This document shows positions 9,419-30,886 of a stretch of DNA of 64,000 nucleotides, one piece after another. The stretch spans positions 32,001 to 96,000 of the IMG/VR virus record IMGVR_UViG_3300024255_001563; one strand, given 5' to 3'. The DNA is from a virus (taxonomy: Duplodnaviria; Caudoviricetes). The translations under genes and the position numbers were made by a program. The number at the start of each line of letters is the position of its first letter. Position 1 is the stretch's first letter. The notes under the pieces are model-generated. The model saw only the letters and a program-made list of their open reading frames with translations. It was not told where the DNA came from and made no database searches.

Positions 9419-9528
9419 TTTTTCTTTCTCCTATTGGGTAGTGTTCTTAATGTATTTAGTAGATTTATTTTAAATCCACCTATTAAACCATACGAAAAAG
9501 GGGCGAAAAAGGTGCGATAAATAAAGTT

Positions 9529-13600: not shown

Positions 13601-13608
13601 TTATTATT

Positions 13609-15054: not shown

Positions 15055-15315
15055 ATGTTACCTAAACTATCAGAATCACAATTCTTTAAAGACGAACTAA
15101 AATTGTTTGAAATTCATATGCAAGATCTATCAAACGACAAAAAAATCGAAGCACAAAAAAAGATTGCAAGTCTTTTAGAACTAGTAGAATATGTAGACAC
15201 AGGTCATACACAAAAAATTGGATCTAGAATAACTCCGTCATTAATGGATAATACTAGATCGCAAATTGTAGATCTTAGAAAACAAATAGCAAAAATTTGT
15301 AATATTAAGATATAG
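15055..15315 (+). CDS. Hypothetical protein
   Basis: 86-aa helical ORF with AGGA SD. Confidence 0.6.
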   Translation: MLPKLSESQFFKDELKLFEIHMQDLSNDKKIEAQKKIASLLELVEYVDTGHTQKIGSRITPSLMDNTRSQIVDLRKQIAKICNIKI

Positions 15316-18300: not shown

Positions 18301-19642
18301 GAGGAGCTGCCATGCTTGTGCCGCCGATGTTTGCAATTTTATAACCCGGAGTAAAATAATCTCCTGCACTTGAACCAAATACATTAGTATCACTACAAGC
18401 ACTTATTATATCAGTTCCTGGGGCCCAGAAATTTGTACCAGGCCCTTTATTACTACTGCCTGCTGTTTTATCTCTAAATACTACACCATCTTGTTGTGTA
18501 GTACTATCTACATTACCTACAATAAATGCTTCTTCGCTATATGGACTAGATCCTTGATGATATTGAGTATTAAGTCCACTAAAAGTCACTTCGTTGTTGT
18601 AATCAAGGCCTGTAGGCACATCTATTTTATAATATTGATTTCCCGATGCAATACAAACATGTATTCCTGCATCAATCATGTCTTCAACCTCTGCATCAAT
18701 TTGCGCTAGTCTTACTGGAATTCTTCTACTTGTACCGCTGGGGCCAGTTAGTTGAGGAACTATACCATACGTTTGCCATAACTGATTTTGTGTTTCACCA
18801 AGATAAGACCATGGTGTTCCTCGATATGTCCCTCCAGTCGGGTCAGTAGTAGTAATTGTTCTACCGTATCCCCAACTCATATTTACTACTGTAGGACGTC
18901 CGTTAGTTTTTGCTAAATGCCATAATCGAATCACATCAAAGCAGTCAGTTGTGCTTATGCCTCCATTTGGATCCGAAGGCCCTTCTAATCCCGAAACTTT
19001 TACTGCATATATGTTTGCATTTTTAGCCCAGCCATATGTTTTACCTGCTGTAATTCCTGCGCAATGTGTTCCGTGGCCGTGATAATCAATATAATGTCCT
19101 GCAGGCATTGTGCCAGGTAATCCACTTTCGCTATACCAATCAATTTCTATAAATCTACTAGCACCTTGCATGTTTTGCCATTCTGGATGATCGGCACTAG
19201 TACCTGTATCTTGTATTACTACATCAACATCAGTTCCGTCTAGCCCATAAGGATAAAATCCATCCGGTGCAGTAGTTCCAGCAGAATACGAATTTGTATC
19301 ATCAATACACCTTCTAAGACCCCAGTTTGCTTTTGTATTATCTACTGCTGAAGTTTTATCAAAGTTAAATCCTTGTGTAAGATGAAGCATTTTATCTATA
19401 CCGTCTTGTTGATCTATAGGTACTTCCACTGCTTCTACTCTTGGATCATTTTTTAATCTTTCGGCTTCTTCGTCACTTAATAGCCAGTTAGTCATTCTCT
19501 TAGAGCCTGGTCTAGAATTCACAACGTCTACTGATCTTTCAGGTATAAATTCGCTTCCGGTTGAGCTAGATAATTCTGTATCTAATTCTTCTAAATTATT
19601 ATTTCTTTTTACAACTACTACATATTCTTTTTCGGTGCTCAT
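15305..19642 (-). CDS. Subtilisin-like S8 serine protease with prodomain, 7 Calx-beta/Ig-like repeats and a C-terminal cupredoxin-like domain
   Basis: Catalytic triad VVIQDTG / HGHGTHCAG / GTSMAAPQVAG; about 100-aa repeats; terminal HPFYLKT...YYYQCEFHNNMFG; no signal peptide. Confidence 0.9.
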   Translation of the reverse strand: MSTEKEYVVVVKRNNNLEELDTELSSSTGSEFIPERSVDVVNSRPGSKRMTNWLLSDEEAERLKNDPRVEAVEVPIDQQDGIDKMLHLTQGFNFDKTSAVDNTKANWGLRRCIDDTNSYSAGTTAPDGFYPYGLDGTDVDVVIQDTGTSADHPEWQNMQGASRFIEIDWYSESGLPGTMPAGHYIDYHGHGTHCAGITAGKTYGWAKNANIYAVKVSGLEGPSDPNGGISTTDCFDVIRLWHLAKTNGRPTVVNMSWGYGRTITTTDPTGGTYRGTPWSYLGETQNQLWQTYGIVPQLTGPSGTSRRIPVRLAQIDAEVEDMIDAGIHVCIASGNQYYKIDVPTGLDYNNEVTFSGLNTQYHQGSSPYSEEAFIVGNVDSTTQQDGVVFRDKTAGSSNKGPGTNFWAPGTDIISACSDTNVFGSSAGDYFTPGYKIANIGGTSMAAPQVAGLIALHLQVDPNATPLQIKNKLVAESKDVLYSTGLDSDYTAYETSLMGSPNRMMFSKYGKQPLSLSGTVSLSTTIPLYYLSQNVTSIDEGGTVRYTLTTVNIDEGTDIPFTLSGITTSDISNLYQWQERYVSNTYEVIRTLTGSSAPGQRYRYRLRWNTSIVGDYNSDSAFSENGLLTSTDGNTYRLGVEESASGPDTIFSIIKVNDTAVDLNGNFYAGYNNKSIIELAIAEDTTTEGAEELTLNINGTSVTSNPITINDTSLDPTYSLIASPTTVNEGATFNVDLTTTNIPNGTPIQYTITGTGITANDFTSGSISGSFIVVNNTSNISFTLAEDLSTEGTETITLALNNGGDSVDVTIIDTSTTPVVPTYTSLAADVETADEGDTITFTLNTSQIADDTTVGYTITGVSVDDIDLVSLTGIFTIVGNTSTLSIDLVEDLDTEGAETLIITLDATDSNGNGTTSLSDNVVIADTSTAPPTYSLSSSVPDVNEGDSIVITLTTTDIADATSIPYTITGVDVSDIDIALTGSFTITSNTDTLAINIADDATTEGSESLTLTLDGLGEDVSVVINDTSITGSPTYILSSGSTTVNEGDSVNILLNTTNVSNGTVVPYTITGIDASDLSSGSITGNFTVSSNFASLSFTFDQDITTEGSEVMNLALDNSEDDISITILDTSLGPTYELSANSVSVDEGDTVNITLDTTSLANGTSIAYTITGIDASDLSSGSITGNFTVNSNTDTIAFVIANDVTTEGPETMTLSLDNGRDSIDIVIADTSIPITYDSLTADATEVGEGTTVTYTLSTSGVDDGTTVGYSISGVTVDDITAATLGGVININSGTGTFTITLENDSLTEGAETMTVTLASTDSLGNSTGSLTEDVTILDTSVAPDYVISVSANNTQNYTLSGSDRNGSVNGNDPALAFNVGDYVEFSVNAPGHPFYLKTVQGTGTGDQAIGVTNQGATLGSVYWTPTTTGTYYYQCEFHNNMFGAITIS
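15630..18065 (-). repeat. Seven tandem ~100-aa Calx-beta-like repeats; the first carries a ~90-aa insertion
   Basis: Consensus PTY.L......V.EG.....L.T.....GT...YTITG....D......G.F....N......D..TEG.E...L.L.......I.DTS. Confidence 0.85.
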
Positions 19643-20823
19643 GTTATGCTTCCTGTATCTAATTCGACCCAGCTTCCGTTTTGATATGCTTCTATTTTAT
19701 TAGAAGTTGTATTATATATCATATCTCCATTTACTGAAATTAAACCATCTCTATCTGTATCACTAAAACTAGGCAATCTTAAAGGGCCGCCTGTAATAGA
19801 TACACCGTCGCCTGTACTTATTGTTAATCTTGCTGCTGTTTCTAATTCAGCATTTCCTATTCCTGTATTTTTTAATGAGCTTGTTTCTATTGTATTTGCA
19901 ATAAGATCTCCGAGTATTAAATCTGACCCGGATTGTATGCTAGGAGGATCTACAAAGGTTACTACTCCGCTACCGTTGGTTTGTAAAAATTGTCCAGTAT
20001 CACCGTCTGTTATTCCTAAATCAAAAAATTCAGTTGGCTTTGGTCTTACAAACGATCCGCTTGACTCTACATAAACATATAACAATTCGTCATCGCTATC
20101 AAACCATAAAGTGCCATTTGTAGCTTCAGATGGTTGAGACGGACTAACTGTAATATTTGCGCCGCTATCATCGTCGCCACCGCTGCCTGTTCCTGGCATA
20201 CTCACAGTTATAGTATTTCCCATAAGTGTATGATTTTGACACCAATAATAAAGTGTTTCAGGAGTTGAGGTTGTTACTGTAATTTGTACTTGTCTTGTTT
20301 TAGATCTTTGAAAATCTCTCCAATATTCTGCTTGTGTTACTTCTTCACCGTTTAGAATATATATTACATTTTCTAAATACGATGTGCCACCGCCGAGTTC
20401 ACCACTGGCGTTGTCTGAACTAAAATTTAACGGGTGTTGATTATTTGCGCCGCCTTCAGCATTTGGAAAATATACATTTGTTTGATCTGTTTGATCAAAA
20501 ACATAAGTGTAACCTACTACCATTGATATTGCTGGTTTATACTCTCCGTTTAGCACATACTTGTTACCGGAATCACCACCTTGTGGACCTGTAATAGTTA
20601 CATTATACTTTACAGTTGCTATCTCTTTTGCAGCAATATTTCTAGGTAACGCTTCGTCAGTGAGTACTTCAAATCCGCCTCGGTTTATAGTTCTGCCACT
20701 ATAAACTCTTAAAGTATTTGTTTCTTTACTAAAAAATACCTCACCGCTAGAACCTGTAGCTCTATCTAAAAATTCTTTTGCTCTAGGAATTATCCTTATA
20801 CGATCAACAATAGGTGATGCCAT
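19639..20823 (-). CDS. Putative virion structural protein with cupredoxin-like domain and C-terminal fibre module
   Basis: HPLNFS...LYYWCQNHTLMG; C-terminal GDMIYNTTSNKIEAYQNGSW; TAAATA 20847-20852; ATGA overlap with the protease gene. Confidence 0.7.
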   Translation of the reverse strand: MASPIVDRIRIIPRAKEFLDRATGSSGEVFFSKETNTLRVYSGRTINRGGFEVLTDEALPRNIAAKEIATVKYNVTITGPQGGDSGNKYVLNGEYKPAISMVVGYTYVFDQTDQTNVYFPNAEGGANNQHPLNFSSDNASGELGGGTSYLENVIYILNGEEVTQAEYWRDFQRSKTRQVQITVTTSTPETLYYWCQNHTLMGNTITVSMPGTGSGGDDDSGANITVSPSQPSEATNGTLWFDSDDELLYVYVESSGSFVRPKPTEFFDLGITDGDTGQFLQTNGSGVVTFVDPPSIQSGSDLILGDLIANTIETSSLKNTGIGNAELETAARLTISTGDGVSITGGPLRLPSFSDTDRDGLISVNGDMIYNTTSNKIEAYQNGSWVELDTGSIT

Positions 20824-20860
20824 CTATATTCTCCATTCGATACTATTATTTATCGTATAT

Positions 20861-22390
20861 TTAATCTAGTTGTCCTGTATATTCCCATAATATATTTTCT
20901 TGTTTAATAGTTTCTGTAAACTGATCAAATCTATAATTAGCACGATATATTCTTTCTACTCTATCATGTAATTCTTTAAGTTCTTGCTGTGCTTGATTTA
21001 TACTAAAATCGTTTAGATATTTCGAACAAACTTCAGGTGAAAGTTGACCAGTTTGTATTAATATATAGCTCCACAATTGCCATCCTGCTGCTCCAGGATA
21101 TGACGGAAAATCATAAAGTGTTGGCATTTTAGTTTTACACATTTCTCGAATCATTTTTGAAAATTCTGTTTCAATTGCACCGCTTGTAATGTATTTCCAA
21201 AATTCACTATCTGTACGCCCGCCCATATAATGCGCTACAAGAAAATCTTTAAAATCGTCAAACATTTTGTTTACTCTTTTATTGTATGCTTTAATACATG
21301 CAGGATTTAAAGTTGTTTCTAAATCATCTTTTAAGTATTCAAATGCAAAGTATTTAAGTTGTACAATTGCACCATGAATTGAAGTTGCTTCTAAAGGTTC
21401 TGCAAAAGTACTACTAAGCCCAATGGTTAAACAATTCTTAACCCATGTATTTTCTAGTCTTCCAGTATCAAAAGTAAATGGATCTCTTAATGGTTCAATT
21501 TTTCTACCAAGAGTTTTCTCAATTTCATTTAACGCTTCGTCGTCACTTATAAAATCACTACAATATGTATAGCCGCAGCCTTTCCTTGTTTGTATAGAAG
21601 CTTGCCACATCCAGCCAGCTGATAGCGCCTGAGCTTCTGTATAAGGATCTGGTTTTGTAGTGTCGTCGTACTGTAAGAAGAAAGGTATAGCTCTGTCAAC
21701 AGGTAAATTTTCTTTATAACAAATCCACTTTGTTCCTAATTTATTAGCTAGTATTCGTCTAAATCCTGAACAATCTATATAAAAATCAGAGTCTATAATT
21801 GTCTCATTATCTAATATCAGCTTGTCTATTCTTCCCTTTTCGTCTTGTGTTACTTCATTTATTATTGCATCAATTAATTCAACATTTTCGTAACGTGTGC
21901 AAACTTTTTGTAAGTAATCAGCTACTAGTCTTGCATCAAAATGCCATGCATGTGTCTGTTCTTCGTAAGTTCCTGTTCTTTTAAGTATAGGTGATGTTCT
22001 AGCTTCCATCAAACACCCAAAATATGTACCTCTATGTAAATTTTGTTTATCGTTTACTGCTAAGAATGAAGTTACACTATCAAGTAAATTCAAAGCAGTT
22101 GGAGTTCCGTCTATCGGCGCAAAGTAATTATAATCCTTTACCCAATCTTTATGCAATATGCCATACTTAGGCATTGCGGCTGTCTTTCTTATAAAATCTA
22201 ATGGATCAATACCAAAGTCACCGTAAGTTCCTAATATAAAATCCATTAGTTCTCCAGTTACTCCTTCACCGGCTCCGAGTATTCCGATTTTACTTGACGC
22301 AACTATTTTAATTTTTGCATTTGAATTATGTGCTAAAAATAAAGCCGATATCCATCCTGCTGTTCCACCGCCGACTACTGTAATTTCCAT
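20861..22390 (-). CDS. Flavin-dependent halogenase, tryptophan halogenase (PrnA) family
   Basis: VVGGGTAGW, GAGEG, catalytic-Lys segment PKYGI..KDW, IDCSGF, FAEPLEATSI; WMWQAS in place of WxWxIP. Confidence 0.85.
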   Translation of the reverse strand: MEITVVGGGTAGWISALFLAHNSNAKIKIVASSKIGILGAGEGVTGELMDFILGTYGDFGIDPLDFIRKTAAMPKYGILHKDWVKDYNYFAPIDGTPTALNLLDSVTSFLAVNDKQNLHRGTYFGCLMEARTSPILKRTGTYEEQTHAWHFDARLVADYLQKVCTRYENVELIDAIINEVTQDEKGRIDKLILDNETIIDSDFYIDCSGFRRILANKLGTKWICYKENLPVDRAIPFFLQYDDTTKPDPYTEAQALSAGWMWQASIQTRKGCGYTYCSDFISDDEALNEIEKTLGRKIEPLRDPFTFDTGRLENTWVKNCLTIGLSSTFAEPLEATSIHGAIVQLKYFAFEYLKDDLETTLNPACIKAYNKRVNKMFDDFKDFLVAHYMGGRTDSEFWKYITSGAIETEFSKMIREMCKTKMPTLYDFPSYPGAAGWQLWSYILIQTGQLSPEVCSKYLNDFSINQAQQELKELHDRVERIYRANYRFDQFTETIKQENILWEYTGQLD

Positions 22391-22405
22391 AAATTATCCT
22401 TTATA

Positions 22406-22453
22406 TAAATATGTATCTAAAAAATTAACTGGGTACTTTATTTATGGTAAATA
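22406..22453. promoter_or_regulatory. Cluster of divergent late promoter hexamers driving the halogenase units
   Basis: TATAAATA 22404-22411 (+), TATTTA 22439-22444 (TAAATA on -), TAAATA 22448-22453 (+). Confidence 0.7.
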
Positions 22454-22470
22454 CTCTGCAAGGAGTTCAT

Positions 22471-23070
22471 ATGGAATTAAATTTTGAATATCTTTTTTCA
22501 ACATATCTATCTACTTTAAAAAATCTTAATATCGACAATGATTCTTTAGAAGAGTATGCATACTTGCAAAGAGAAAAAGATAACGGTGTAGAAAAAAGTA
22601 ATTGGAAGGGCTGGCAAAGCGATACTTTAGAAGAACAAAATTCTGAAGTTGAAAAGCTATGTTCTATAATAGAAGACGCATGTAATGAATTAAAAAATAA
22701 CTTAGGATTTAAAAAACACTTAATTCCAAAAATAAACAATATATGGCTCAATATTAATTCTAACGGATCTTTTAATCGTCCACATTTACATCCTGGTAGT
22801 ATATTTTCTGGAACGTATTATATAAAAAAATCAGCAGAGGATGGAAATATAGTATTTACTACACCTTGTGTACAGCAACAATATCATATAGAAAAAGAGT
22901 TAATAGACCAATTTAATCCTACAACATCAAGTGTATATAGTATTCCCACAGACCCGGGTACAATGATACTATTTCCGTCATGGGCAGAGCATTTTGTTGA
23001 ACCCAACAACACAGATGTAGATAGAATTTCTATTGCGTTTAACGTAGCATTATTAGAGGATAACACATGA
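22471..23070 (+). CDS. 2OG-Fe(II) oxygenase (TIGR02466-like, HxH type); start revised from 22444
   Basis: GWQS, WLNIN..GSFNRPHLHPGS.FSGTYY, LFPSWAEHFVEPN, RISIAFN; AAGGAG SD before 22471. Confidence 0.85.
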   Translation: MELNFEYLFSTYLSTLKNLNIDNDSLEEYAYLQREKDNGVEKSNWKGWQSDTLEEQNSEVEKLCSIIEDACNELKNNLGFKKHLIPKINNIWLNINSNGSFNRPHLHPGSIFSGTYYIKKSAEDGNIVFTTPCVQQQYHIEKELIDQFNPTTSSVYSIPTDPGTMILFPSWAEHFVEPNNTDVDRISIAFNVALLEDNT

Positions 23071-24548
23071 AAAATTTAGTGATCGCAGGCGGCGGCTCTG
23101 CGGGCTGGTTAACAGCACTTTTTGTAAAACAACTTTTTCCAGATCATAATGTAACGTTAGTACAAAGTAGCGAAATAGGAACTATCGGCGTCGGTGAAGC
23201 AACTACTCCTCATCTACCAAATTTTCTTGATAGTTTAAAAATACATCCTGTAGATATAATACCGCATATTAAAGGCAGTATAAAAAATGGTATCAGTTTT
23301 GAGAATTGGAATGGCGATAATAAAAAATATATGCATGCATTTCATGATAAAATTATAGATTTTCAAATTCCTAATATATTTGATCGTAACTGTACTGATT
23401 ATCATCATAGAGAAATAATTTCAAAAAAATTATCTATGAAAGAATATCTTTATCAACAAAAAATAGCATATGAAAATAAAGTAGATATCGAAAATGTAAA
23501 TTGGGCATTGCACTTTGATGCAAAAGAGTTTGCTAATTATTTGCAAAAAATAGCAATAGATAGAAATATAAAATTAATAGATGATGAAATAGTAGGGTTT
23601 GAAAATGATGAAAAAAACTTTATTACAAAAGTAATACTAAAAAATAATAGAAGTGTAAGCTGTGATTTTATATTCGATTGTACTGGATTTAGAAGAGAAA
23701 TAATAGGAAAGTTTTACAAAGAAAAATGGAAGAGTTATAGATCTTACATGCCTATGAAAAAAGGCATTCCATTTTGGCTAGAATCAAAAGAAAGTTTGCC
23801 ATCATATACTTCTAGTATTGCATTGAAAAATGGATGGAGTTGGCAAATACCGCTGCCTCATAGAACTGGTAGTGGTTATATTTTTGATTCTGATTACATA
23901 AGTGTAGACGAAGCACTAAATGAAGCAGAAGAATTCTATAAACAAAAACTGGAAGTAAGAAAAGTAATAGATTTTGATCCTGGAAGATTTGAAAATCTTT
24001 GGATTAAAAACTGCATTGCTGTTGGATTATCAGGCAGTTTTTTAGAACCTTTAGAATCAACCTCTATTTGGCAAACTATTGATCAATTAGAAACGTTAAA
24101 ACATTTCTTAAACGTCCTTACAAAAGACGAAAATGATTCAAGAAGTTTGTATAATGAAATGATGAATAACAGTATTGATCATAAAAGTTATTTTATATAT
24201 CTTCATTATTACACGAAAAGATCAGATAGTGATTTTTGGAAAGAATTTAAAGAAAAAAATCCTATGCCAGAAGAACTAAAAAATCTTTATAATTCTCTAA
24301 AAGATGGAAGCTTTAGATATTTCGATATGTTAAATCACAAAACTCCAGGAACATTTGCAGTATCAAGTTTTACACAAGTAGGATACGGGCTTAATATGAT
24401 TGACAATCTAGATAATTCAGTATATAATAAAATTCAACCTTCTGTAGAAGAATATAAAAATATAATTAATTATCATAATGATATGATTGCGATAGACCAT
24501 AGACATTTTTTAGAAAGACAATATGAAAATATTAGGAATAAATTTTAA
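23067..24548 (+). CDS. Flavin-dependent halogenase, tryptophan halogenase (PrnA) family
   Basis: IAGGGSAGW, IGVGEATTP, IKNGISFENW, FDCTGF, WSWQIP, FLEPLESTSI. Confidence 0.9.
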   Translation: MKNLVIAGGGSAGWLTALFVKQLFPDHNVTLVQSSEIGTIGVGEATTPHLPNFLDSLKIHPVDIIPHIKGSIKNGISFENWNGDNKKYMHAFHDKIIDFQIPNIFDRNCTDYHHREIISKKLSMKEYLYQQKIAYENKVDIENVNWALHFDAKEFANYLQKIAIDRNIKLIDDEIVGFENDEKNFITKVILKNNRSVSCDFIFDCTGFRREIIGKFYKEKWKSYRSYMPMKKGIPFWLESKESLPSYTSSIALKNGWSWQIPLPHRTGSGYIFDSDYISVDEALNEAEEFYKQKLEVRKVIDFDPGRFENLWIKNCIAVGLSGSFLEPLESTSIWQTIDQLETLKHFLNVLTKDENDSRSLYNEMMNNSIDHKSYFIYLHYYTKRSDSDFWKEFKEKNPMPEELKNLYNSLKDGSFRYFDMLNHKTPGTFAVSSFTQVGYGLNMIDNLDNSVYNKIQPSVEEYKNIINYHNDMIAIDHRHFLERQYENIRNKF

Positions 24549-26235
24549 TTCACATTGTTCTGCTTGTCTAATAGTAGATAATGAATTAATATATTTTAAT
24601 CAAGAAGAAAGACTATCTAGATTAAAAAACGATAGCGGTATTCCTTATCTTTGTCTAGAAGAAATAAAAAAAATAGAAACAAAAATAGATTTATTACTTG
24701 TAACAGGTTATAATTATAATATTAATAATGGTTTTTATTTGTTAAACTTTCTTAATAAAAGCGGTTTTAATATAGAAGGGTGGTACGGTTATTATAAATC
24801 ACACCATTTAGTTCATGCTGCAAAGGCTGTAAACGATAGCGGATTCGATGATGCTCTTGTGTTTGTACAAGATGGAAAAGGATCATCGTATATGCTATCA
24901 AACGGTTATGAAAGTATAGAAACTACTAGTATATTTGAGTATTCAAAAGATAAAGGCTTTTCTTGTGTTTATAAAAATTTGTTTTCTCACTATCATACAG
25001 CAAGAAATTTAGAAGTTGGAACAGATATATTTCCTATTATAGATCACGAATATGAAAAGGCTTATGCGTTTCCAACAGATCGCCTGTATGAAGATACAAA
25101 ATTTAACATTTCTAATCACTTCGATTTAGGATTATTATATACTATAACAGGACAGTGTTGCGGATTTACTGATGATGGCGGCAAATTAATGGGACTTCAA
25201 AGTTACGGAACTAACGACAGCGAATTACCAGATGTACTCTTTGATGATTATAAAATTAACATGGACAGTTTTATACTAGATCAGTCTAATATATATAATA
25301 ACGAATTTAACTATAAAAAATATCCATATCTAGCAATAGAACAAAAGAAGAAAAACTTTGCCTATAAAGTACAAAAATCTTTTGAAGAGAAACAACATAA
25401 TTTAATATCAAAATATCTAAAGGAAACAGGAAAAAAGAATTTAGTAATGTCTGGAGGAACTGCATTAAATGTAGTAGGAAATGGTAAACTGTTATCTAAA
25501 TTAGACTCTGATATTAATATTTTTATTGAACCTGTATGCGGCGATGAAGGTAATAGTATAGGAATTTGCAATCTGTATCTATTAGAAGACAACATAAAGA
25601 CATCTTTCAGTATTTACAATTGTGGGACAGATCCCGAATACAATTATAATTTACTTGATTTTGAATCTGAAAAAAAAGTTACTGATCAAGATATTGCTGA
25701 ACTTATTGCCAAAGGCGCAATTGTATCGTATTTCCACGGAAAGGGAGAAGCTGGTCCTAGAGCATTAGGAAATAGAAGTTTATTATTTAATCCTAGTATA
25801 ATAGATGGTAAAGATATAGTTAATCAAGTAAAAGGAAGAGAAAGCTTTAGACCGTTTGCATGTAGTATACTTGAAGAACATGCAAAAAACTGGTTTGACT
25901 TTAAAGGTCAAAATTCTTCCCCTTATATGATGTTTGCCCTTGAGTGCAATAAAGATGTAGAAAAAATAATTCCTAGTGTAATACACGTTGATGGAACTTG
26001 TAGAGTACAAACTGTAAATATAGAACAAAATAAAAATTATTATAATTTAATTAACGAGTTTTATAAAATTACAAATATTCCTTTACTTTTTAATACATCA
26101 TTTAATCTAGCAGGCGATCCTATTGTGCATACAGTACAAGACGCATTAGAATCTATAAGAAATAGTAAAATAGAATATTTATATCTACCCGAAATTAACA
26201 CCTTAATACATAGTGAGAACCTTTATGAAAACTAA
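24523..26235 (+). CDS. Carbamoyltransferase (NodU/CmcH/TobZ family)
   Basis: EERLSRLK, HHLVHA, DGKG, GKLMGL.SYG, GGTALN, GDEG..IG, GPRALGNRS, RESFRPFA, HVDGTCRVQTV, NTSFN. Confidence 0.9.
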   Translation: MKILGINFNSHCSACLIVDNELIYFNQEERLSRLKNDSGIPYLCLEEIKKIETKIDLLLVTGYNYNINNGFYLLNFLNKSGFNIEGWYGYYKSHHLVHAAKAVNDSGFDDALVFVQDGKGSSYMLSNGYESIETTSIFEYSKDKGFSCVYKNLFSHYHTARNLEVGTDIFPIIDHEYEKAYAFPTDRLYEDTKFNISNHFDLGLLYTITGQCCGFTDDGGKLMGLQSYGTNDSELPDVLFDDYKINMDSFILDQSNIYNNEFNYKKYPYLAIEQKKKNFAYKVQKSFEEKQHNLISKYLKETGKKNLVMSGGTALNVVGNGKLLSKLDSDINIFIEPVCGDEGNSIGICNLYLLEDNIKTSFSIYNCGTDPEYNYNLLDFESEKKVTDQDIAELIAKGAIVSYFHGKGEAGPRALGNRSLLFNPSIIDGKDIVNQVKGRESFRPFACSILEEHAKNWFDFKGQNSSPYMMFALECNKDVEKIIPSVIHVDGTCRVQTVNIEQNKNYYNLINEFYKITNIPLLFNTSFNLAGDPIVHTVQDALESIRNSKIEYLYLPEINTLIHSENLYEN

Positions 26236-26842
26236 TTATATTATAATTGACGATTTTTACGATAATCCCTGGGAAATAAGACAACGTGCTTTAGAATTAG
26301 AATATAAAAAACTAGAAGGTTCTACATATCCTGGTTTAAATTCTTTAGGATTTTTATACAATGATGAAATGCATAAAAATATTGAAGGCATCTTAAATAC
26401 AAAATTAGAAAATCCAAGAGACATGCAAGCTGGATATTTTCGTATTTCTCACGAAGATGCAGATGCTGCACAAGATATACATATAGATCCCGACTTTGAC
26501 TATGGAGGTGTATTGTTTTTAAATCCGCCTAATCAATGTACAAACGATGCTGGTACTAGTTTTTATACACACAAAATATTAGGAATCGACAAAGGTCCAA
26601 AAAATTTAGAAGAAGTTAAACAACTAGGATTTCCAGGTTATGAAAATTTTGTAAACGAAATGATTTATGGCGATTGTCTTGATAGGTCAAAATGGGAACG
26701 ATATTGCAGAATACCTTACAAATTTAATAGACTGGTATTATTTGATAGCCATTTATGGCATAGTCATGGAGTTAATTTTGGAAATAATTTACAAAATTCT
26801 AGATTAGTACAATTATTTTTTTATAAAAGGTTAAAAAAGTAA
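26225..26842 (+). CDS. DUF6445-like 2OG-Fe(II) oxygenase-fold protein (alternative GTG start at 26213)
   Basis: IIIDDFY.NP, YPG, IHID, GGVLFLNP, GTSFY, FNRLVLFD..LWHS. Confidence 0.7.
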   Translation: MKTNYIIIDDFYDNPWEIRQRALELEYKKLEGSTYPGLNSLGFLYNDEMHKNIEGILNTKLENPRDMQAGYFRISHEDADAAQDIHIDPDFDYGGVLFLNPPNQCTNDAGTSFYTHKILGIDKGPKNLEEVKQLGFPGYENFVNEMIYGDCLDRSKWERYCRIPYKFNRLVLFDSHLWHSHGVNFGNNLQNSRLVQLFFYKRLKK

Positions 26843-26843
26843 A

Positions 26844-27410
26844 TTAGTATACCCATGAAACATAACTATATCTAGTTCCTTTTGTTACTGGTTCTACTTT
26901 GTGAGGATACATAAAGTTACTAGGAAAAATTAAAACGGCGCCTGGAGGAATATCTATTACCGTATCCCACATAACAAACTCGCCACCTTCGTAATCATTA
27001 TTTAACCCGCCTACTATACTTAAAATTGGTATTCCGTTTATACCAGGCCCAAAAAGATCATGTATATGATCACAATGTAACTTCATTTTTTTCTTTTCAC
27101 TATACCGATTAAATCTTAACGGACTGTATCCACGCCACCCTGCAAACCATTTATGATCTAAATCATTAATAATATAATTTTCTAAGGCTTTGTAAAGATT
27201 ATCTTGTATTGTTTGTTTTTCTTTTATATCACTCCAAGACATTTGTAAATCATCTACAAACGTAACTCTTTCTTGTGTTGTATTATTATTAAAATAATGA
27301 TCTTCCCATAGCTCATCATTTTTCAAACTTTTTACTGTATTATTACAAGTATCTTCATCAATAATATTTTCATAAACTTTTATATATTTGTCAATTGTAT
27401 TGTTAATCAT
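26844..27410 (-). CDS. 2OG-Fe(II) oxygenase, prolyl-4-hydroxylase-like
   Basis: HCD, LN.DYEGGEF, FPSNFMYPHKVEPVTKGTRYS. Confidence 0.9.
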   Translation of the reverse strand: MINNTIDKYIKVYENIIDEDTCNNTVKSLKNDELWEDHYFNNNTTQERVTFVDDLQMSWSDIKEKQTIQDNLYKALENYIINDLDHKWFAGWRGYSPLRFNRYSEKKKMKLHCDHIHDLFGPGINGIPILSIVGGLNNDYEGGEFVMWDTVIDIPPGAVLIFPSNFMYPHKVEPVTKGTRYSYVSWVY

Positions 27411-28024
27411 ACGTTTAGCTCCGATAAAAAGAATTCGCTTCCGATTGAACCTTTTATAAATGTATTAAATGATAAACTCATTCTAGATTCCCTTTCTTGA
27501 TCTTCTTGCACAATATCTACATAATGTAAAAGACTGCTCGGAAATAATACTAACATTCCTGTGCTTACAGGATAATACCAGGTGCTAGCATTATGAATAT
27601 TATAAGTAACAGGTTCAATTTCTAGAGGATTAAAAATGCCTTTATCAAACCATATACTATCTGTATTTGGATTTGCACTAATATAATATACTCCACTTAC
27701 GAGACTGTTGGTATGAGCATGTTTATGATGCATTTCTCCTGGAAAAGTTTTATTACACCACGACTGTGTTATATGTAAAGATACCTGGTTATTAGGTTGA
27801 TAAACTTCCTTAAAATAAAACTGAACATGCTTGTCAATTTCATTACGCAAAGTAGAAAGTTCTTTTCTTTCTAGAAGGTATGAATCTACTGATCTATGAT
27901 TAAACTTATTTTGTTGAAAATCTTGAGATTTTATAAAATTAAATTCGTCTTGATGTGGTATGTAGTCTAACCCTGTTGTATAAACAGGTGTTGGAAATAA
28001 ATTATGTATGTTTGTATCTGCCAT
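27407..28024 (-). CDS. 2OG-Fe(II) oxygenase (TIGR02466-like, HxH type)
   Basis: LFPTPVY, SWCN....MHHKHAHTNSLVSGVYY, LFPSSLLHYV, RMSLSFN. Confidence 0.85.
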   Translation of the reverse strand: MADTNIHNLFPTPVYTTGLDYIPHQDEFNFIKSQDFQQNKFNHRSVDSYLLERKELSTLRNEIDKHVQFYFKEVYQPNNQVSLHITQSWCNKTFPGEMHHKHAHTNSLVSGVYYISANPNTDSIWFDKGIFNPLEIEPVTYNIHNASTWYYPVSTGMLVLFPSSLLHYVDIVQEDQERESRMSLSFNTFIKGSIGSEFFLSELNV

Positions 28025-28029
28025 AAAAT

Positions 28030-28058
28030 TATTTAGTTATATATGTATATTATAAATA
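28030..28058. promoter_or_regulatory. Divergent late promoters, each 5 nt before an SD-less ATG
   Basis: TATTTA 28030-28035 with ATG at 28024 (-); TAAATA 28053-28058 with ATG at 28064 (+). Confidence 0.75.
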
Positions 28059-28063
28059 CTTTT

Positions 28064-28576
28064 ATGAATGTAATTGATAATTTTTTAGACAAAAAAGAAT
28101 TCCAACAAATACAAGATATTTGTTTAGGGGCAAACTTTCCGTGGTTCTGTAATAGTAATATTGTTCGTCCTGAAAATAAAGATGAATTTCTTAATTTTTA
28201 TAATTATCAATTTACGCACACTTTATATCGAGATTATTCCCCTTGTAGTAACTATTTCAATGATATTTGCGATCCTTTATTTTTCAAGATTAATCCTGCA
28301 TCAATTATGAGAGTAAAAGCAAATCTTATACCGAGAGCAGATAAAAATGTAATACACGAGTATCATGAAGACATTACAAATTTTAAAGGAAAGACTGCTA
28401 TCTACTATGTAAACACTAATGATGGTAAGACATATTTTAAAGACCATCAATCTGTCGAGGCTGTAGAAAATAGATTAGTAATATTTGATAGTAATCTATT
28501 ACATACAGGCAGTACGTGTACAGATCAGCGCACTCGAGTTGTTTTAAATTTAAATTATTTCGAATGGAATAATTAA
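28064..28576 (+). CDS. 2OG-Fe(II) oxygenase; start revised from 28043
   Basis: VIDNFL, RVKANL, HED, TAIYYVN.NDG.T, ENRLVIFD..LLHTG, RVVLNLNY. Confidence 0.8.
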   Translation: MNVIDNFLDKKEFQQIQDICLGANFPWFCNSNIVRPENKDEFLNFYNYQFTHTLYRDYSPCSNYFNDICDPLFFKINPASIMRVKANLIPRADKNVIHEYHEDITNFKGKTAIYYVNTNDGKTYFKDHQSVEAVENRLVIFDSNLLHTGSTCTDQRTRVVLNLNYFEWNN

Positions 28577-29224
28577 TTAAACAAATCTAGGTCCTCTTAC
28601 CCAAATAACTATTGATTTTCGAACACCTTTTGTTACAGGTGCAACTCTATGCATTACAAAAGACGGAAATAAGATACATTGTCCTTTTGCACAAGGTACT
28701 ATGTCATTCTTTGGATCTGAAGTTCTTCCCATCATAAACTCGCCACCTTCAAAATCGACACCGGGTTCGTTTAATAATAATGTTAATGATAATTTACGTT
28801 GATGAGGATCTAGTTGCTGTTGACCTGTTTCTAAATCAATATGCCAGTCATATGTGCCGTTATCTTCAGCATGATATTCTGTATATTGAAATGCTTCGTA
28901 TCCATTTAAATCAAAGTTATAAAAATCTTCATTTACAGCTTCGATTATACTATTTAATCTTTGGAATATAAAATTATTATCTTCGTTCGGAAACTGCCAT
29001 CCAAGTTTAGATCTTCTAACGTCTTCTAATTTTCTTCCGTCCTGTTTAGCTGGATCATTATCTCTGTTTCCAACTTTTCCATCTTCAAGCTTTTGTGATG
29101 ACATTAATACTTGAATTTTTTCTAATTCTTCGTTAGAAAAAGACTCCATCCAATAACAGTACGGAGAAAAATATTGTGATCGTTGTATGGGGTTGTTTAT
29201 TAGTCTTTTAAATCTGCCAGACAT
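28577..29224 (-). CDS. 2OG-Fe(II) oxygenase, PKHD/prolyl-hydroxylase-like
   Basis: QYTEY....YDWHID, RKLSLTLLLN...FEGGEF, FPSFVMHRVAPVTKGVRKSIVIW. Confidence 0.9.
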   Translation of the reverse strand: MSGRFKRLINNPIQRSQYFSPYCYWMESFSNEELEKIQVLMSSQKLEDGKVGNRDNDPAKQDGRKLEDVRRSKLGWQFPNEDNNFIFQRLNSIIEAVNEDFYNFDLNGYEAFQYTEYHAEDNGTYDWHIDLETGQQQLDPHQRKLSLTLLLNEPGVDFEGGEFMMGRTSDPKNDIVPCAKGQCILFPSFVMHRVAPVTKGVRKSIVIWVRGPRFV

Positions 29225-29302
29225 CCTCTAAATCCTTTTTTTTAATACTAGTAGTAATTATCGTTTTATACTTACATGTATTATTAAACTGGATTTAGAG
29301 GA
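29224..29302 (-). promoter_or_regulatory. 12-bp perfect inverted repeat covering SD and start, flanking a TAATTA promoter variant
   Basis: TCCTCTAAATCC 29224-29235 and GGATTTAGAGGA 29291-29302; TAATTA 29255-29260. Confidence 0.55.
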
Positions 29303-29310
29303 CTAGATTT

Positions 29311-29871
29311 TTATAGTTCAGCTTGACCTTCAGGATCAGCTAAAGGTGTAAATGCTTGCCATTCGCCTGTACTATCATTCCATGCAAACTTTTCATCTCC
29401 TGATTCAGCTGATGCCGGCACAGGTTGTGTAATATCTGTTTGAACTGCATGCGGAGTTATAATACTATCGTGGCTTACCCAGTTAGTAGATATTTCGTCC
29501 CATAAATGATCGTTGCCATCTGTAGGATATGCTACAGGAGGAACATGCACACCGAGAGCATCATCAAACACCCACGAAGGAAACCCGCCATCGGCTCTCC
29601 AGTTAGCTTTTAAAGTATTCTTTTTATCTACTACTTCAGCATCTGTCATTTCTCTTAGAACCCAGTCATCTGATGCACTAGTACGATCAGCACTTACACT
29701 ATAAGCATGATCGTTGGTTTGATACACTCCTTCAACTGGTCTTTCAGTTCTAGTAAAAGGAACAAATGTTTTACCTTCTTTAAAGCTATCTGGTGCCGCA
29801 TCTAAGTTACTTTTTTCTATAGGATGATTTACAGCATTACCGTGTTCGTCTATTTCAATATATAATTCCAT
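29311..29871 (-). CDS. Tail-fibre-associated protein
   Basis: FPSW.FD.....VPPVAYP.DG....WDE....W motif, which I recognise from small genes next to phage fibres. Confidence 0.6.
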   Translation of the reverse strand: MELYIEIDEHGNAVNHPIEKSNLDAAPDSFKEGKTFVPFTRTERPVEGVYQTNDHAYSVSADRTSASDDWVLREMTDAEVVDKKNTLKANWRADGGFPSWVFDDALGVHVPPVAYPTDGNDHLWDEISTNWVSHDSIITPHAVQTDITQPVPASAESGDEKFAWNDSTGEWQAFTPLADPEGQAEL

Positions 29872-29883
29872 TATTATCTCCTA

Positions 29884-30885
29884 TTATTGATCGTTGGTGT
29901 TAGTGCCGGGCCATGATCTTGGGATTGTAGTTCCCCAAATGATTCTTACTACGCCTCGACCACCGTCGCCTGAACTAGAAGGCCAACTTGTACCTGGGCC
30001 GCCACCGCCGCCTCCGTACGCACCACCTCGTATATTATTTGAACTTTCGCCAGTTCCGCTCCATGGATTTTGTCCATAGTAGCCTCTCTCGCCACTGGAG
30101 CCTCCTAATCCACCGCCACCTTGTGGCGAACCTGATGTTGACCATGGAGTATACTGACCGTTACCGTTAGGTCCTTGTCCGTATATACCAGTGCCGCCTC
30201 CGGCGCCTGTACCGAATGTTGATGAGTAATTTCTGCCGCCAGCAGCTCCTCCAGAATATGGGTGCGGATATTCATTTACGTTGCCGCCACGTCCTGTGTA
30301 GCCGCCTGCGCCGCCTCCGCCAGTCCAATCAGTTGAATTGCCGCCTCCGCCGCCGCCGTCGCCGTTATATCCTCCACCGCGTCCGTTATTTCTCGGGCCG
30401 CCTGTTTGACCTTGTGCAGATCCGCCGCCATAGCCGCAAACAGTATTAGTACTTTGGAAATAGCTGTTGCCGCCATTTTGACCATTGCCGCCGCCGTAGC
30501 CAACAACAACTGTATAACTTCCGCCTGGTGTTACAGGTATAGTATTTTTCCAACCTAAACCTGCGCCAGCGCCGCCTGGGTTAGCCCAACTATTCTGGCC
30601 TCCGCCGCCGCCGCCGATAGCAAGCACGTTTACTTCGTAAACTTGTGAAGGTGCAACCCATGTATACGAACCTGGGTTCGTATAGTTTTGTTGTCCTGGT
30701 GGAATGGGTGGATTTGTCAGCGGTAGCGGTAGCCATTCACTGCCGTCATAACCTTCAAAATTGCCATCGCTTGTATTCCATCTCATCATGCCGGCGCTTG
30801 CTCCGCCTGGGCGTTGACCTGTTGTACCAGAAGCAACTTTTAAATATCCGGTGTCATTTATTGTCGTATTCTTTAAACTAGCCAT
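29884..30885 (-). CDS. Glycine-rich fibre-tip/receptor-binding-like protein
   Basis: N-terminal GTTGQRP..G.MRWNT...FEGYDG.EW module followed by many poly-Gly runs (IGGGGGG, YGGGGGGPG, GRGVVRIIW). Confidence 0.75.
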   Translation of the reverse strand: MASLKNTTINDTGYLKVASGTTGQRPGGASAGMMRWNTSDGNFEGYDGSEWLPLPLTNPPIPPGQQNYTNPGSYTWVAPSQVYEVNVLAIGGGGGGQNSWANPGGAGAGLGWKNTIPVTPGGSYTVVVGYGGGNGQNGGNSYFQSTNTVCGYGGGSAQGQTGGPRNNGRGGGYNGDGGGGGGNSTDWTGGGGAGGYTGRGGNVNEYPHPYSGGAAGGRNYSSTFGTGAGGGTGIYGQGPNGNGQYTPWSTSGSPQGGGGLGGSSGERGYYGQNPWSGTGESSNNIRGGAYGGGGGGPGTSWPSSSGDGGRGVVRIIWGTTIPRSWPGTNTNDQ

Positions 30886-30886
30886 A

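Follow-up and report, generated by a model that had tools for sequence, protein, structure and literature searches.

Gene clusters of the kind described here are already known from the cyanophages Syn9 and S-SSM6a (Iyer et al. 2010, 2021). In Syn9, gp40–gp54 comprise two Trp-type halogenases and ten tandem dioxygenases (Iyer et al. 2010, PMC2938197); Syn10, the source of the viral halogenase VirX1, carries an equivalent of this cluster. The S-SSM6a/P-SSM2-type cluster has 8–12 genes, including carbamoyltransferases, a halogenase, 2OG oxygenases and a cupin, and its published reading is a role in making a secondary metabolite or in capsule decoration (Iyer et al. 2021, PMC7824862). The g15–g18 hyperplastic region of cyanomyoviruses was described by Millard et al. 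2009 (as reviewed in PMC2984593).

We analysed a stretch of 64,000 nucleotides (the window; positions 32,001 to 96,000 of IMG/VR record IMGVR_UViG_3300024255_001563; all coordinates below are those of the window). The source is an uncultured marine jumbo T4-like myovirus, whose capsid protein shares ~70% identity with its counterparts in relatives of Serratia phage BF. New for such a cluster are its late-type promoters, the swap of a halogenase allele between sister strains, and the repeated placement beside glycine-rich PF21722 genes of the fibre module, seen in Syn9, Syn10, S-RIM44, Sf-CH3, P-RSM6 and the source phage.

Enzymes of the module

An earlier note on this DNA had listed nine modifying enzymes at 20861–29224 (two halogenases, a carbamoyltransferase and six Fe/2OG oxygenases), and Pfam families could be assigned to all nine. 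Both halogenases are flavin-dependent and match PF04820 (Trp_halogenase). The first, hal1 (20861–22390, − strand; 303 bits, with a PDB alignment), contains GxGxxG, Lys75, W260/W262 within WMWQAS, and EPLEAT, and these residues are invariant. The second, hal2 (23067–24548, +; 357 bits), has Lys73, WSWQIP and EPLEST. Halogenase matches in the PDB included VirX1. The NodU/TobZ-type O-carbamoyltransferase (24523–26235, +; PF02543 and PF16861, Carbam_trans_N and Carbam_trans_C) consists of a Kae1-like domain with H94/H95/H98 and a YrdC-like domain; its PDB matches were TobZ, GdmN and NovN.

Among the oxygenases, ox1 (22444–23070, +; probable start 22471) and ox4 (27407–28024, −) belong to TIGR02466/PF13759, the former with the HxH...H...R signature and the latter with H102-x-H104, H167 and R181. 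DUF6445 was assigned to ox2 (26213–26842, +; probable start 26225; H90-x-D92, H183, R197), and ox5 (28043–28576, +; probable start 28064; H108-x-D110, H154, R165) is DUF6445-like. The match of ox5 was borderline (26 bits, with the cut-off at 24), and it was kept as an oxygenase because HxD...H...R is invariant in its orthologues. PF13640 was assigned to ox3 (26844–27410, −; PKHD/prolyl-hydroxylase-like; H112-x-D114, H170, R180) and to ox6 (28577–29224, −; PiuC/PKHD-like; H128-x-D130, H192, R202), which is the last gene of the fibre operon. The island oxygenases are not recent duplicates of one another. Catalytic residues of all nine enzymes are invariant across relatives with only ~45% identity.

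The enzyme set reaches beyond 20861–29224, and the island begins directly after gp15, the tail-sheath stabiliser (PF16724). A NUDIX hydrolase (13609–14070, +; PF00293, 56.5 bits), which in relatives lies directly between gp15 and hal1, is followed by a seventh oxygenase-like protein (14051–14695, +; PF13759), whose homologues adjoin hal2 in L015, L009/L036 and L045, and by a cysteine-dioxygenase-like cupin (14692–15054, +; phrog_7851, E 9e-13). Between the two enzyme blocks lie a subtilase-domain adhesin (15305–19642, −; Peptidase_S8, Reeler and Calx-beta) and, downstream of hal1, a fibre- or baseplate-wedge-like protein (19639–20823, −) with its own ATAAATA at 20853(−). At the other end, a small acidic partner protein (29311–29871, −) separates ox6 from a glycine-rich gene; it is kept beside ox6 in L013, L014 and L046, and it resembles the HTVC008M gp066 family only marginally. 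The module contains 2–3 flavin-dependent halogenases, one NodU/TobZ-type carbamoyltransferase and 6–8 Fe/2OG-type oxygenases from four families.

The A/T-richness reported earlier was confirmed, the GC content of the island being 0.27–0.31 against 0.33–0.40. The deficit arises at codon positions 1 and 2; GC3 of the island (0.182) is close to that of structural genes (0.19), as against 0.31 for early-like genes and 0.27 for a radical-SAM island of the same genome. The low GC content is due to amino-acid composition.

Promoter motifs and timing

According to the earlier note, every transcription unit of the island starts at the TAAATA/TAATTA hexamer of the capsid and tail genes. This held in part: ATAAATA, or a variant beginning with C or G, heads four of the five units, but the TAATTA at 29255 found no support. 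The sites noted at 22406, 22439 and 28053 sit inside full ATAAATA heptamers; 28030 is CTAAATA, a variant that also precedes the sheath gene, and 22448 is GTAAATA. One putative divergent promoter region (22391–22470) holds ATAAATA(+) at 22405–22411, ATAAATA(−) at 22445–22439 and GTAAATA(+) at 22447–22453, and its TAAATA cores are kept in L004, L006 and L014. The other (28025–28063) holds CTAAATA(−) at 28036–28030, 5 nt before the ox4 ATG, and ATAAATA(+) at 28052–28058, 5 nt before the ATG at 28064; its motifs are kept in L006, L013 and L014, with the 5-nt gap to the ATG retained on the + (ox5) side. The motifs are conserved at equivalent intergenic spots in relatives of ~45% protein identity. 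No motif of its own was found for ox6 (28577–29224).

ATAAATA occurs 49 times in the 200 kb of the genome, with 22 copies in the 4% that is non-coding. More than half (28 of 49) precede a gene on the same strand by at most 100 nt, against an expectation of ~3, and the motif is enriched, in the correct orientation, ahead of the genes for tube, adaptor, baseplate and fibre proteins. It resembles the late promoter of T4 and cyanophages (PMC2984593), and the genome encodes a gp55-type late sigma factor. In the radical-SAM island, in contrast, no late-type motif was found, and sigma70 promoters occur instead. A perfect sigma70-type promoter (TTGACA-17-TATAAT; 24400–24428, +) also lies within the 3′-terminal part of hal2, 95 nt ahead of the start of the carbamoyltransferase gene. 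The genome has 13 such perfect sites against ~0.4 in shuffles; the site at 24400–24428 is not conserved in relatives.

Late timing of the island, proposed earlier, is supported by these sequence features, namely the likeness of the motif to the T4/cyanophage late promoter, the gp55-type sigma factor, the positional conservation and the contrast with the radical-SAM island. The proposal has to be narrowed, however, as late-only expression is wrong for the carbamoyltransferase with its sigma70 promoter, and possibly for ox6. Late-type motifs also stand at the start of the halogenase units in Syn9, Syn10, Sf-CH3 and S-RIM44.

Late timing is compatible, too, with a post-replicative modification of nucleic acid, in which bases of progeny DNA or RNA would be oxidised, carbamoylated or halogenated shortly before packaging. 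The mom gene of phage Mu is a late gene and offers a precedent. A halogenase and an oxygenase of HTVC008M lie between the terminase subunits, the corresponding genes of L012 directly follow gp15 and precede the terminase genes, O-carbamoyltransferases would favour primary alcohols such as 5-hydroxymethyl, and ox6 weakly matches PF09859 ("Oxygenase-NA"), below the cut-off. On the other side, none of the island oxygenases falls in the TET/JBP or AlkB families by Pfam, and the island has no DNA methyltransferase or hydroxymethylase. We consider such a modification very unlikely.

Conservation and allele exchange

The location of the enzymes in a structural module, as claimed earlier, proved to be conserved. 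Order, orientation and position (from gp15/NUDIX to the fibres) are kept in at least five lineages, at 64–81% nucleotide identity and 40–56% amino-acid identity, and eight genes retain order and orientation at ~45% identity. A location beside structural genes recurs in Syn9, Syn10, S-RIM44, Sf-CH3, P-RSM6 and HTVC008M, and was not found in P-SSM2, S-B64 and S-H38. In a comparison of sister strains over ~15 kb (11797–26998), only hal2, exchanged as a cassette, and the C-terminal part of the adhesin were replaced.

These observations bear on whether the genes are unlinked cargo, that is, independent auxiliary genes gathered where the structural module tolerates insertions and sharing no substrate, for example for generic 2OG turnover or repair. 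The hypervariable g15–g18 region of cyanomyoviruses holds 4–14 inserted host-like genes (PMC2984593), and Sullivan et al. suggested roles in 2OG and nitrogen status (PMC3037559). Gene content near hal2 differs between lineages, and singleton halogenases are found in non-structural contexts. Against this stand the kept order and orientation of the eight genes, the conserved promoter motifs, and the same enzyme families repeatedly accompanying hal2 in otherwise different contigs; we consider unlinked cargo an unlikely explanation. Judged from its sequence, the module is very probably vertically inherited, catalytically intact and transcribed mainly from gp55-type late promoters along with neck, tail and fibre genes.

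Candidate substrates

The glycine-rich protein next to the island (29884–30885, −; Gly_rich_2, PF21722) is a candidate substrate. It contains 30% Gly, 23 Pro (7 in Pro-Gly), 11 Trp and 19 Tyr, with no collagen-like or long G-X-Y repeats, and is the sole PF21722 match in the 200-kb record, ~0.7 kb past the ox6 end of the island. PF21722 genes lie <1 kb from the halogenase cluster in the source genome and, directly upstream of the halogenases, in Syn9, Syn10, S-RIM44, Sf-CH3 and P-RSM6; in each of these six genomes all above-cut-off matches sit at the cluster locus. They also adjoin the cluster in the metagenomic L007, L015, L016, L025, L027 and L031, and in HTVC008M such a gene lies 1.7 kb from four oxygenases. 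The halogenases of P-SSM2/P-SSM5 and S-B64 are distant from their PF21722 genes, and five halogenase-bearing phages gave no PF21722 match.

The model of ox2 showed a confident double-stranded beta-helix fold. Its nearest folds were the protein prolyl hydroxylases OGFOD1, PHD2 and P4H, together with PKHD-type hydroxylases of unassigned substrate; amino-acid hydroxylases and halogenases matched at equal scores. As OGFOD1 acts on ribosomal protein uS12 and the Pseudomonas P4H on EF-Tu, the oxygenases might instead hydroxylate host translation factors or ribosomal proteins and so manipulate the cell late in infection. This would leave the halogenases, the carbamoyltransferase and the fibre-module linkage unexplained, and host takeover functions are normally early; we hold it to be quite improbable.

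Our leading reading is tailoring of the virion surface, to which, taken as a whole with module, late promoters and substrate, we give a probability of roughly 0.4. Late in infection, the enzymes would modify components of the virion surface that are produced at that time. Those oxygenases that most resemble prolyl hydroxylases would add hydroxyl groups to residues of the PF21722 protein encoded beside the island, and possibly to the adhesin; exposed Trp or Tyr would be targets of the halogenases, and the carbamoyltransferase may cap a hydroxyl on a residue or an attached sugar. On this view, the exchange of one enzyme allele for another would readjust the virion surface. Indirect support comes from the recurrent adjacency to PF21722 genes, and a virion target is further suggested by the ox2 folds, by the sequence matches of ox3 and ox6 to the PKHD/PiuC group, by the placement of ox6 and of hal1 (upstream of and co-oriented with the fibre-like and adhesin genes), by the hal2 and adhesin swaps, and by the late-type motifs on cyanophage halogenase units.

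Several points count against virion tailoring. Characterised NodU/TobZ enzymes all act on small molecules or sugars, and we know of no native flavin halogenase reported to halogenate proteins outside RiPP peptides. Several oxygenase families together with halogenases form a classic small-molecule tailoring pattern (PMC2938197), and a location beside fibre genes may mean no more than a permissive boundary or a hyperplastic region such as g15–g18 (PMC2984593). Also weighed on this side were the sigma70 promoter of the carbamoyltransferase, the lack of collagen-like repeats, the equal-score ox2 folds, and the unlinked or absent PF21722 genes of some phages.

The enzymes might serve a small-molecule or glycan pathway, leading to a halogenated, hydroxylated and carbamoylated amino-acid or sugar product or to decoration of the host capsule or LPS. 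The solved relatives of the carbamoyltransferase, TobZ, NovN and GdmN, act on sugar or polyketide hydroxyls, distantly related oxygenases in a single cluster recall cephamycin-type tailoring, VirX1 reportedly takes many small aromatics, and a NUDIX hydrolase stands beside the module. Iyer et al. interpreted the same enzyme combination in this way (2010, PMC2938197; 2021, PMC7824862). Yet the island has no scaffold-forming enzyme (NRPS, ATP-grasp, glycosyltransferase), methylase, HAD phosphatase or exporter, and such a pathway does not predict late-promoter control or PF21722 linkage; a lytic phage would profit little from producing an antibiotic shortly before lysis. We regard this pathway as possible, though doubtful.

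Comparison with known systems

In Syn9, as in the island, two flavin halogenases are grouped with several Fe/2OG oxygenases that are only distant relatives of one another, and the group adjoins fibre genes and PF21722 glycine-rich genes and is preceded by ATAAATA. The Syn9 cluster is a single co-directional operon with a JmjC/MINA-like member and no carbamoyltransferase, whereas the island, in a jumbo-type phage, is split into five divergent units, includes a carbamoyltransferase and gave no JmjC match; the halogenases of the two are only ~30% identical.

The Pelagibacter phage HTVC008M has four 2OG oxygenases before the head-tail adaptor; its enzymes lie inside a late structural module, and it has a single PF21722 gene, both as in the source phage. 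Its halogenase, 45% identical to hal2, is the closest from a cultured phage among the phage records searched. It differs in having one halogenase, no nearby carbamoyltransferase, another arrangement and a much smaller genome.

In giant viruses, virion fibre proteins are hydroxylated by virus-encoded enzymes, the mimivirus collagen hydroxylase and the PBCV-1 prolyl 4-hydroxylase. The idea that a virus modifies its surface fibres with an Fe/2OG hydroxylase from its own genome is shared with virion tailoring, but those viruses are eukaryotic and their substrates collagen-like, unlike the glycine-rich protein described above. To our knowledge, neither halogenation nor carbamoylation occurs in viruses of the mimivirus/PBCV-1 type.

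With the S-SSM6a/P-SSM2-type cluster the source phage has in common the carbamoyltransferase, halogenase, 2OG oxygenases and cupin; none of the island genes was identified as a HemK-like methylase, HAD phosphatase or O-methyltransferase, and late promoters and the glycine-rich linkage are absent from the published description (PMC7824862). The g15–g18 region resembles the island in position, since the island begins after gp15 and the L012 halogenase lies between g15 and g16, but it carries variable host-like cargo, whereas the island has a fixed gene order in at least five lineages.

Gene content of the island

The region 20861–29224 of the window contains nine closely packed ORFs on alternating strands. 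Two of these, hal1 (20861–22390, −) and hal2 (23067–24548, +), matched Trp_halogenase (PF04820) with 303 and 357 bits, respectively, against a Pfam cut-off of 21, and the gene at 24523–26235 (+) encodes a carbamoyltransferase with both of its domains present (PF02543, 80.8 bits; PF16861, 198.6 bits). Hence, the two halogenases and the carbamoyltransferase proposed in the earlier note were all matched by Pfam with scores above the cut-off. The oxygenase genes are named ox1 to ox6 in coordinate order. Both ox1 (22444–23070, +) and ox4 (27407–28024, −) belong to PF13759 and are members of TIGR02466, scoring 95 and 76 bits against an NCBIfam cut-off of 62.5. By Pfam, ox2 (26213–26842, +) and, near the cut-off, ox5 (28043–28576, +) are DUF6445 proteins, while ox3 (26844–27410, −) and ox6 (28577–29224, −) fall in PF13640 and, by NCBIfam, near the PKHD/YbiX hydroxylases. 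Orthologue alignments, along with promoter spacing, suggested 22471, 26225, and 28064 as the probable true starts of ox1, ox2, and ox5.

Outside the range first considered lie a NUDIX hydrolase gene (13609–14070), a further PF13759 gene (14051–14695), and a cupin gene (14692–15054). A subtilase-domain adhesin (15305–19642, −) and a fibre-like protein (19639–20823, −) are encoded between the two enzyme blocks. In the Protein Atlas, the DUF6445 and PF13759 clusters are mostly viral; nothing could be learned from the genes around a DUF6445 homologue on a 258-kb contig. Megablast searching of the phage collection returned no match to the island.

Catalytic residues and folds

PF04820 covered hal1 and hal2 at near full length, and their closest PDB matches were PyrH, PrnA, RebH, and VirX1 (E values of 1e-57 to 1e-64). 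The FAD-binding GxGxxG motif (GGGTAG in hal1, GGGSAG in hal2), the catalytic lysine (K75 and K73), and the glutamates of EPLE(S/A)T (E331/E334 and E327/E330) align with the same residues of the solved halogenases and were invariant in seven orthologues. The WxWxIP motif reads WSWQIP in hal2 and WMWQAS in hal1, where both Trp residues are invariant and IP is replaced. An assignment of the halogenases as LodB, QhpG, or GoxB maturases was dropped, the NCBIfam matches being far below the cut-off. Packaging of the enzymes for injection is also unlikely: the halogenase N-termini start directly with the FAD-binding motif, which argues against a capsid-targeting leader.

The carbamoyltransferase comprises a Kae1-like domain at the N-terminus, which holds an HxxxH metal site, and a YrdC-like domain at the C-terminus; H94, H95, and H98, together with C-terminal Lys/Arg residues, were invariant in the orthologues. 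Its PDB matches (TobZ, NovN, and GdmN) covered mainly residues 270–556. Since its score for the NodU equivalog was far under the NCBIfam cut-off, it is a member of the family but not a NodU orthologue.

All six remaining genes had been described as Fe/2OG oxygenases. This held for ox2, ox3, ox5, and ox6, which carry the HxD/E...H facial triad and the basic 2OG-binding residue (Arg). The canonical triad was not found in the PF13759/TIGR02466 members ox1 and ox4; they carry a non-canonical HxH...H with an Arg, a pattern shared with the uncharacterised PDB entries 2RG4 and 3BVC. These two are the solved relatives of ox1, and PiuC is that of ox6; a literature search on PiuC found nothing. Detectable likeness among the six was confined to ox1/ox4 (28%) and ox3/ox6 (45% over 55 residues), and the active-site residues of the halogenases and oxygenases were invariant in orthologues only about 45% identical. 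The island enzymes look active and are not recent duplicates.

Modelled with AlphaFold from 34 homologues, ox2 gave a confident structure (pLDDT 92.7), a double-stranded beta-helix. The nearest structures were OGFOD1, PKHD-type hydroxylases, PHD2, and bacterial P4H, and similar scores were obtained for the amino-acid hydroxylases and halogenases BesD, HalB, and WelO5; the Foldseek matches to OGFOD1, PHD2, P4H, BesD/HalB, and WelO5 had a probability of 1.0 and TM 0.5–0.6. Hydroxylation of host proteins is one reading of folds of this kind, less likely than action on the virion surface, for which prolyl-hydroxylase-like folds are also among the grounds.

Phage identity, synteny, and strain-level change

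The IMG/VR record is a myovirus fragment that is 57% complete by CheckV. In the major capsid protein it shares about 70% identity with jumbo phages of 350–470 kb (Serratia phage BF, Yersinia phage fHe-Yen9-04, Vibrio phage 2.275.O, and Sinorhizobium phage Phosso). No phages of the host genera Serratia, Yersinia, Vibrio, or Sinorhizobium were present among the 68 phage records matching hal2. The DNA was found in seawater/marine metagenome runs from many studies.

The earlier note had placed the island in the tail-fibre module. In at least five IMG/VR lineages, gene order and orientation were kept from gp15 to the S74 fibre: gp15, NUDIX, and hal1 (−); ox1, hal2, and carbamoyltransferase (+); ox3 and ox4 (−); ox5 (+); and ox6 (−), followed by a small protein, the glycine-rich protein, and the S74 fibre. 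In some lineages a third halogenase gene stands after ox3 and ox4 (−) and before ox5 (+). The five lineages (the window with L042/L043/L048; L004/L006; L013/L014; L044/L046/L047; and L045) are mutually 64–81% identical in nucleotides. Their proteins are 40–56% identical to those of the window, and the flanking structural proteins fall in the same range.

Against this stable order, some parts differ between close relatives. The sister strains L042 and L043 are otherwise 95–100% identical to the window, but their hal2 shows 58–79% nucleotide and 63% protein identity, the gene having been replaced as a cassette whose boundaries are sharp and lie at 23,100 and 24,525. These strains also have an additional DUF6445-like gene, resembling ox5, inserted after ox2 (i.e., after 26842), and the C-terminal part of the adhesin is replaced (region 15504–16259). 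Contigs with the window-type adhesin tip were too short to include hal2. That the enzyme genes are unlinked cargo is a less likely reading.

Late-type promoters

A TATAAATA-like −10 element of the T4 late type was enriched and correctly oriented before late genes. ATAAATA occurs 49 times in the 200,843-bp record, with 22 of these in the non-coding 4%, and 28 copies lie within 100 nt upstream of a same-strand gene, compared with about 3 expected. The genes so preceded encode the tail tube, head–tail adaptor, virion structural proteins, baseplate hub, and giant fibres, and also a gp32-like SSB, a radical-SAM protein, and a TauD-like dioxygenase; the sheath gene is preceded by CTAAATA. The NATAAATA late promoter and the g15–g18 hyperplastic region have been reviewed by Clokie et al. 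2010 (PMC2984593).

A late hexamer, TAAATA or TAATTA, had been claimed for every transcription unit of the island. ATAAATA was found in the hal1–ox1 gap at 22405 (+) and 22445 (−), and in the ox4–ox5 gap at 28052 (+), where the ox5 ATG follows after 5 nt, along with CTAAATA (−) 5 nt before the ox4 ATG. The TAAATA cores are kept in L004, L006, L013, and L014 with the same orientation and nearly equal spacing, and relatives also keep the distance of 5 nt between motif and start at ox5. For the ox6 unit (28577–29224), no late-type element was found, and the TAATTA proposed at 29255 lost its standing, as TAATTA showed little upstream enrichment. The gap upstream of ox6 is filled by an 11-bp inverted repeat, CCTCTAAATCC (29225–29235) and GGATTTAGAGG (29291–29301), with a 55-nt spacer; in L006 and L014, the start of ox6 is immediately preceded by a tight hairpin that carries a T-run.

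Starts only 5–7 nt after ATAAATA were seen at window positions 9517–9531, 28052–28066, and 62865–62851, and at 5401, 31437, 163242, and 169126 of the whole record. Were initiation to follow the pattern of T4 late promoters, mRNAs with this spacing would be leaderless or nearly so. It may be noted that an HNH endonuclease gene (window 9529–9867) between the sheath and adaptor genes has ATAAATA 6 nt before its start and is kept in relatives with about 60% identity. ATAAATA also stands 7–17 nt before the starts of the radical-SAM protein (168070–169113 of the record) and the TauD-like dioxygenase (172461–173555). Tailoring enzymes under late-type control thus occur outside the island as well.

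A gp55-type late sigma factor is encoded at 104615–105439 (−) of the record (72615–73439 in window coordinates, beyond the window; phrog_12791, E 1e-78), and is 33% identical to T4 gp55. A T4 gp45 query found nothing. A perfect sigma70 promoter precedes the gp55-type gene by 25 nt. There are 13 perfect TTGACA-N16/17-TATAAT sites in the record, compared with about 0.4 in shuffles (examples, in window coordinates: 24400, 9869, 64797, 72610, and 73492). They stand before DnaB helicase, SbcD, gp55, and a separate radical-SAM island, and probably form a clean class of early promoters. In the radical-SAM island, ATAAATA is absent and sigma70 sites are used instead. One perfect site (24400–24428) lies 95 nt before the carbamoyltransferase gene and is specific to the hal2 allele of this strain; sigma70-like sites in general were not enriched in the region.

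From these elements we infer that the island would be expressed late. Modification of nucleic acids, as a role for the enzymes, is a less likely reading than action on the virion, for which the promoter class is one of the grounds. As for published data, the PMC7238727 supplements give orthologue groups without expression classes, and PMC12753301 covers other pelagiphages. Four sequencing runs yielded merely scattered contigs of low depth, from what is probably a DNA library.

Base composition

The island is richer in A/T than its surroundings, as the earlier note had stated (GC 0.27–0.31 compared with 0.33–0.40), and the drop falls on codon positions 1 and 2. GC3 was 0.182 for the island, 0.19 for the structural genes, 0.27 for the radical-SAM island, and 0.31 for the early-like right arm. 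Thus the synonymous usage of the island resembles that of late structural genes. Since its GC3 equals theirs, the A/T richness is no sign of recent import, and a foreign origin argued from low GC was rejected. A local GC peak of 0.51 at 30001–31000 is due to the GGN-rich glycine-rich gene.

Glycine-rich proteins beside the enzyme genes

The protein encoded at 29884–30885 (−), 660 nt from ox6, is 30% Gly and is the sole PF21722 match in the 200-kb record. PF21722 or very glycine-rich proteins of about 300 residues also occur 0–2 kb from enzyme genes in L007, L015, L016, L025, L027, L031, and HTVC008M, the genes often being followed by a small conserved partner gene. When PF21722 and PF04820 were mapped in 14 cultured phage genomes, glycine-rich genes were found about 0.5–0.7 kb directly upstream of the halogenase genes in Syn9, Syn10, S-RIM44, Sf-CH3, and P-RSM6, as a single copy in Sf-CH3 and as tandem pairs in the others, and these five genomes had no other PF21722 match above the cut-off. 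In Syn9 the PF21722 proteins are gp38 and gp39; Lys and Arg are scarce in the glycine-rich proteins. Late-type motifs precede the small ORF heading the halogenase unit in Syn9, Syn10, Sf-CH3, and S-RIM44. The two gene types are far apart in P-SSM2/P-SSM5 and S-B64, and in Syn1, S-PM2, S-H38, S-SCSM2R, and S-SRM01 the halogenase is a singleton and PF21722 gave no match. The S-PM2 halogenase match (NC_006820, 121319–122608) contains an in-frame TAA, is not annotated as a gene, and may be a pseudogene.

The association is suggestive but no proof, because the Kyanoviridae cases are non-independent and both gene sets lie at a module boundary. A collagen-like substrate was rejected, the longest G-X-Y run in the glycine-rich protein being only 6. 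Its AlphaFold model was unusable (pLDDT 45) and a PDB profile search gave no match, so that its likeness to the polyglycine-rich gp38 adhesins (PMC12032242) is an analogy only.

Interpretation and comparison with known clusters

The sequence shows a set of enzymes that is intact and long conserved, lies among late genes, and has promoters of the late type. The enzymes presumably share a substrate, and its nature can be proposed only by inference. We rank tailoring of the virion surface first, at a probability of roughly 0.4, with the glycine-rich protein as the prime candidate substrate. The grounds for this are the class of promoter, the way the island genes are interspersed with those for fibres and adhesin, the link to PF21722, folds like those of prolyl hydroxylases, and the exchange of alleles. 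Ranked closely after it is a small-molecule or glycan pathway, as published; this reading fits the carbamoyltransferase family and the multi-family oxygenase pattern well, but taken singly we consider it somewhat unlikely.

Tailoring of the virion surface has a bolder form: the phage would halogenate, hydroxylate, and carbamoylate its own receptor-binding apparatus (the PF21722 protein and/or the adhesin), and halogenase allele swaps would retune this surface. As a whole this is improbable. If true, it would provide the first halogenated virion protein and would explain why marine T4-like phages carry their long-puzzling arrays of halogenases and 2OG oxygenases, and also what VirX1 does natively.

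To our knowledge, the halogenase, 2OG-oxygenase, and carbamoyltransferase genes of marine T4-like phages, noted since 2005–2010, have no assigned function, and the sole published readings that we know of are a secondary metabolite, capsule decoration, and 2OG drawdown. The cluster type itself is already published; what is new is a set of testable leads applicable to cultured cyanophages. The window places a cluster of this kind in another clade, one of jumbo phages, that occurs in seawater metagenomes of many studies, and offers handles that are valid for cultured phages: late-type promoters, stable inheritance within the neck–fibre region, and repeated adjacency to one glycine-rich fibre-module family. 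A vague question thereby becomes directly testable on virions of Syn9, Syn10, or S-RIM44. Should the virion reading prove true, host recognition by phages would gain a new class of post-translational chemistry; should it fail, the small-molecule reading is the one to pursue.

The placement of such genes varies among phages. The Syn9 unit gp40–54 comes after the fibre genes and has ATAAATA in front of it. In HTVC008M, an oxygenase and a halogenase separate the terminase subunits and four oxygenases stand ahead of the adaptor, and L012 has a halogenase between g15 and g16; the single halogenases of P-SSM2, S-H38, and S-B64 lie in non-structural surroundings. Sullivan et al. 2010 (PMC3037559) listed such genes and proposed 2OG-related roles. 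For the Syn9 array, with its ten dioxygenases and two halogenases, Iyer et al. 2010 (PMC2938197) proposed a secondary metabolite. Like that array, the window has at least two Trp-type halogenases and several non-paralogous dioxygenases in one neighbourhood; unlike it, the window has no JOR/JmjC (MINA-like) member, Pfam finding no JmjC or cupin_8 in any island protein. The S-SSM6a cluster of Iyer et al. 2021 (PMC7824862) consists of carbamoyltransferases, a halogenase, 2OG oxygenases, and a cupin, and capsule decoration or a secondary metabolite was proposed for it. In contrast to that cluster type, no HemK-like methylase or HAD phosphatase was found at 13609–29224 by Pfam and PHROG scans; like it, the window joins carbamoyltransferase, halogenase, 2OG oxygenases, and cupin.
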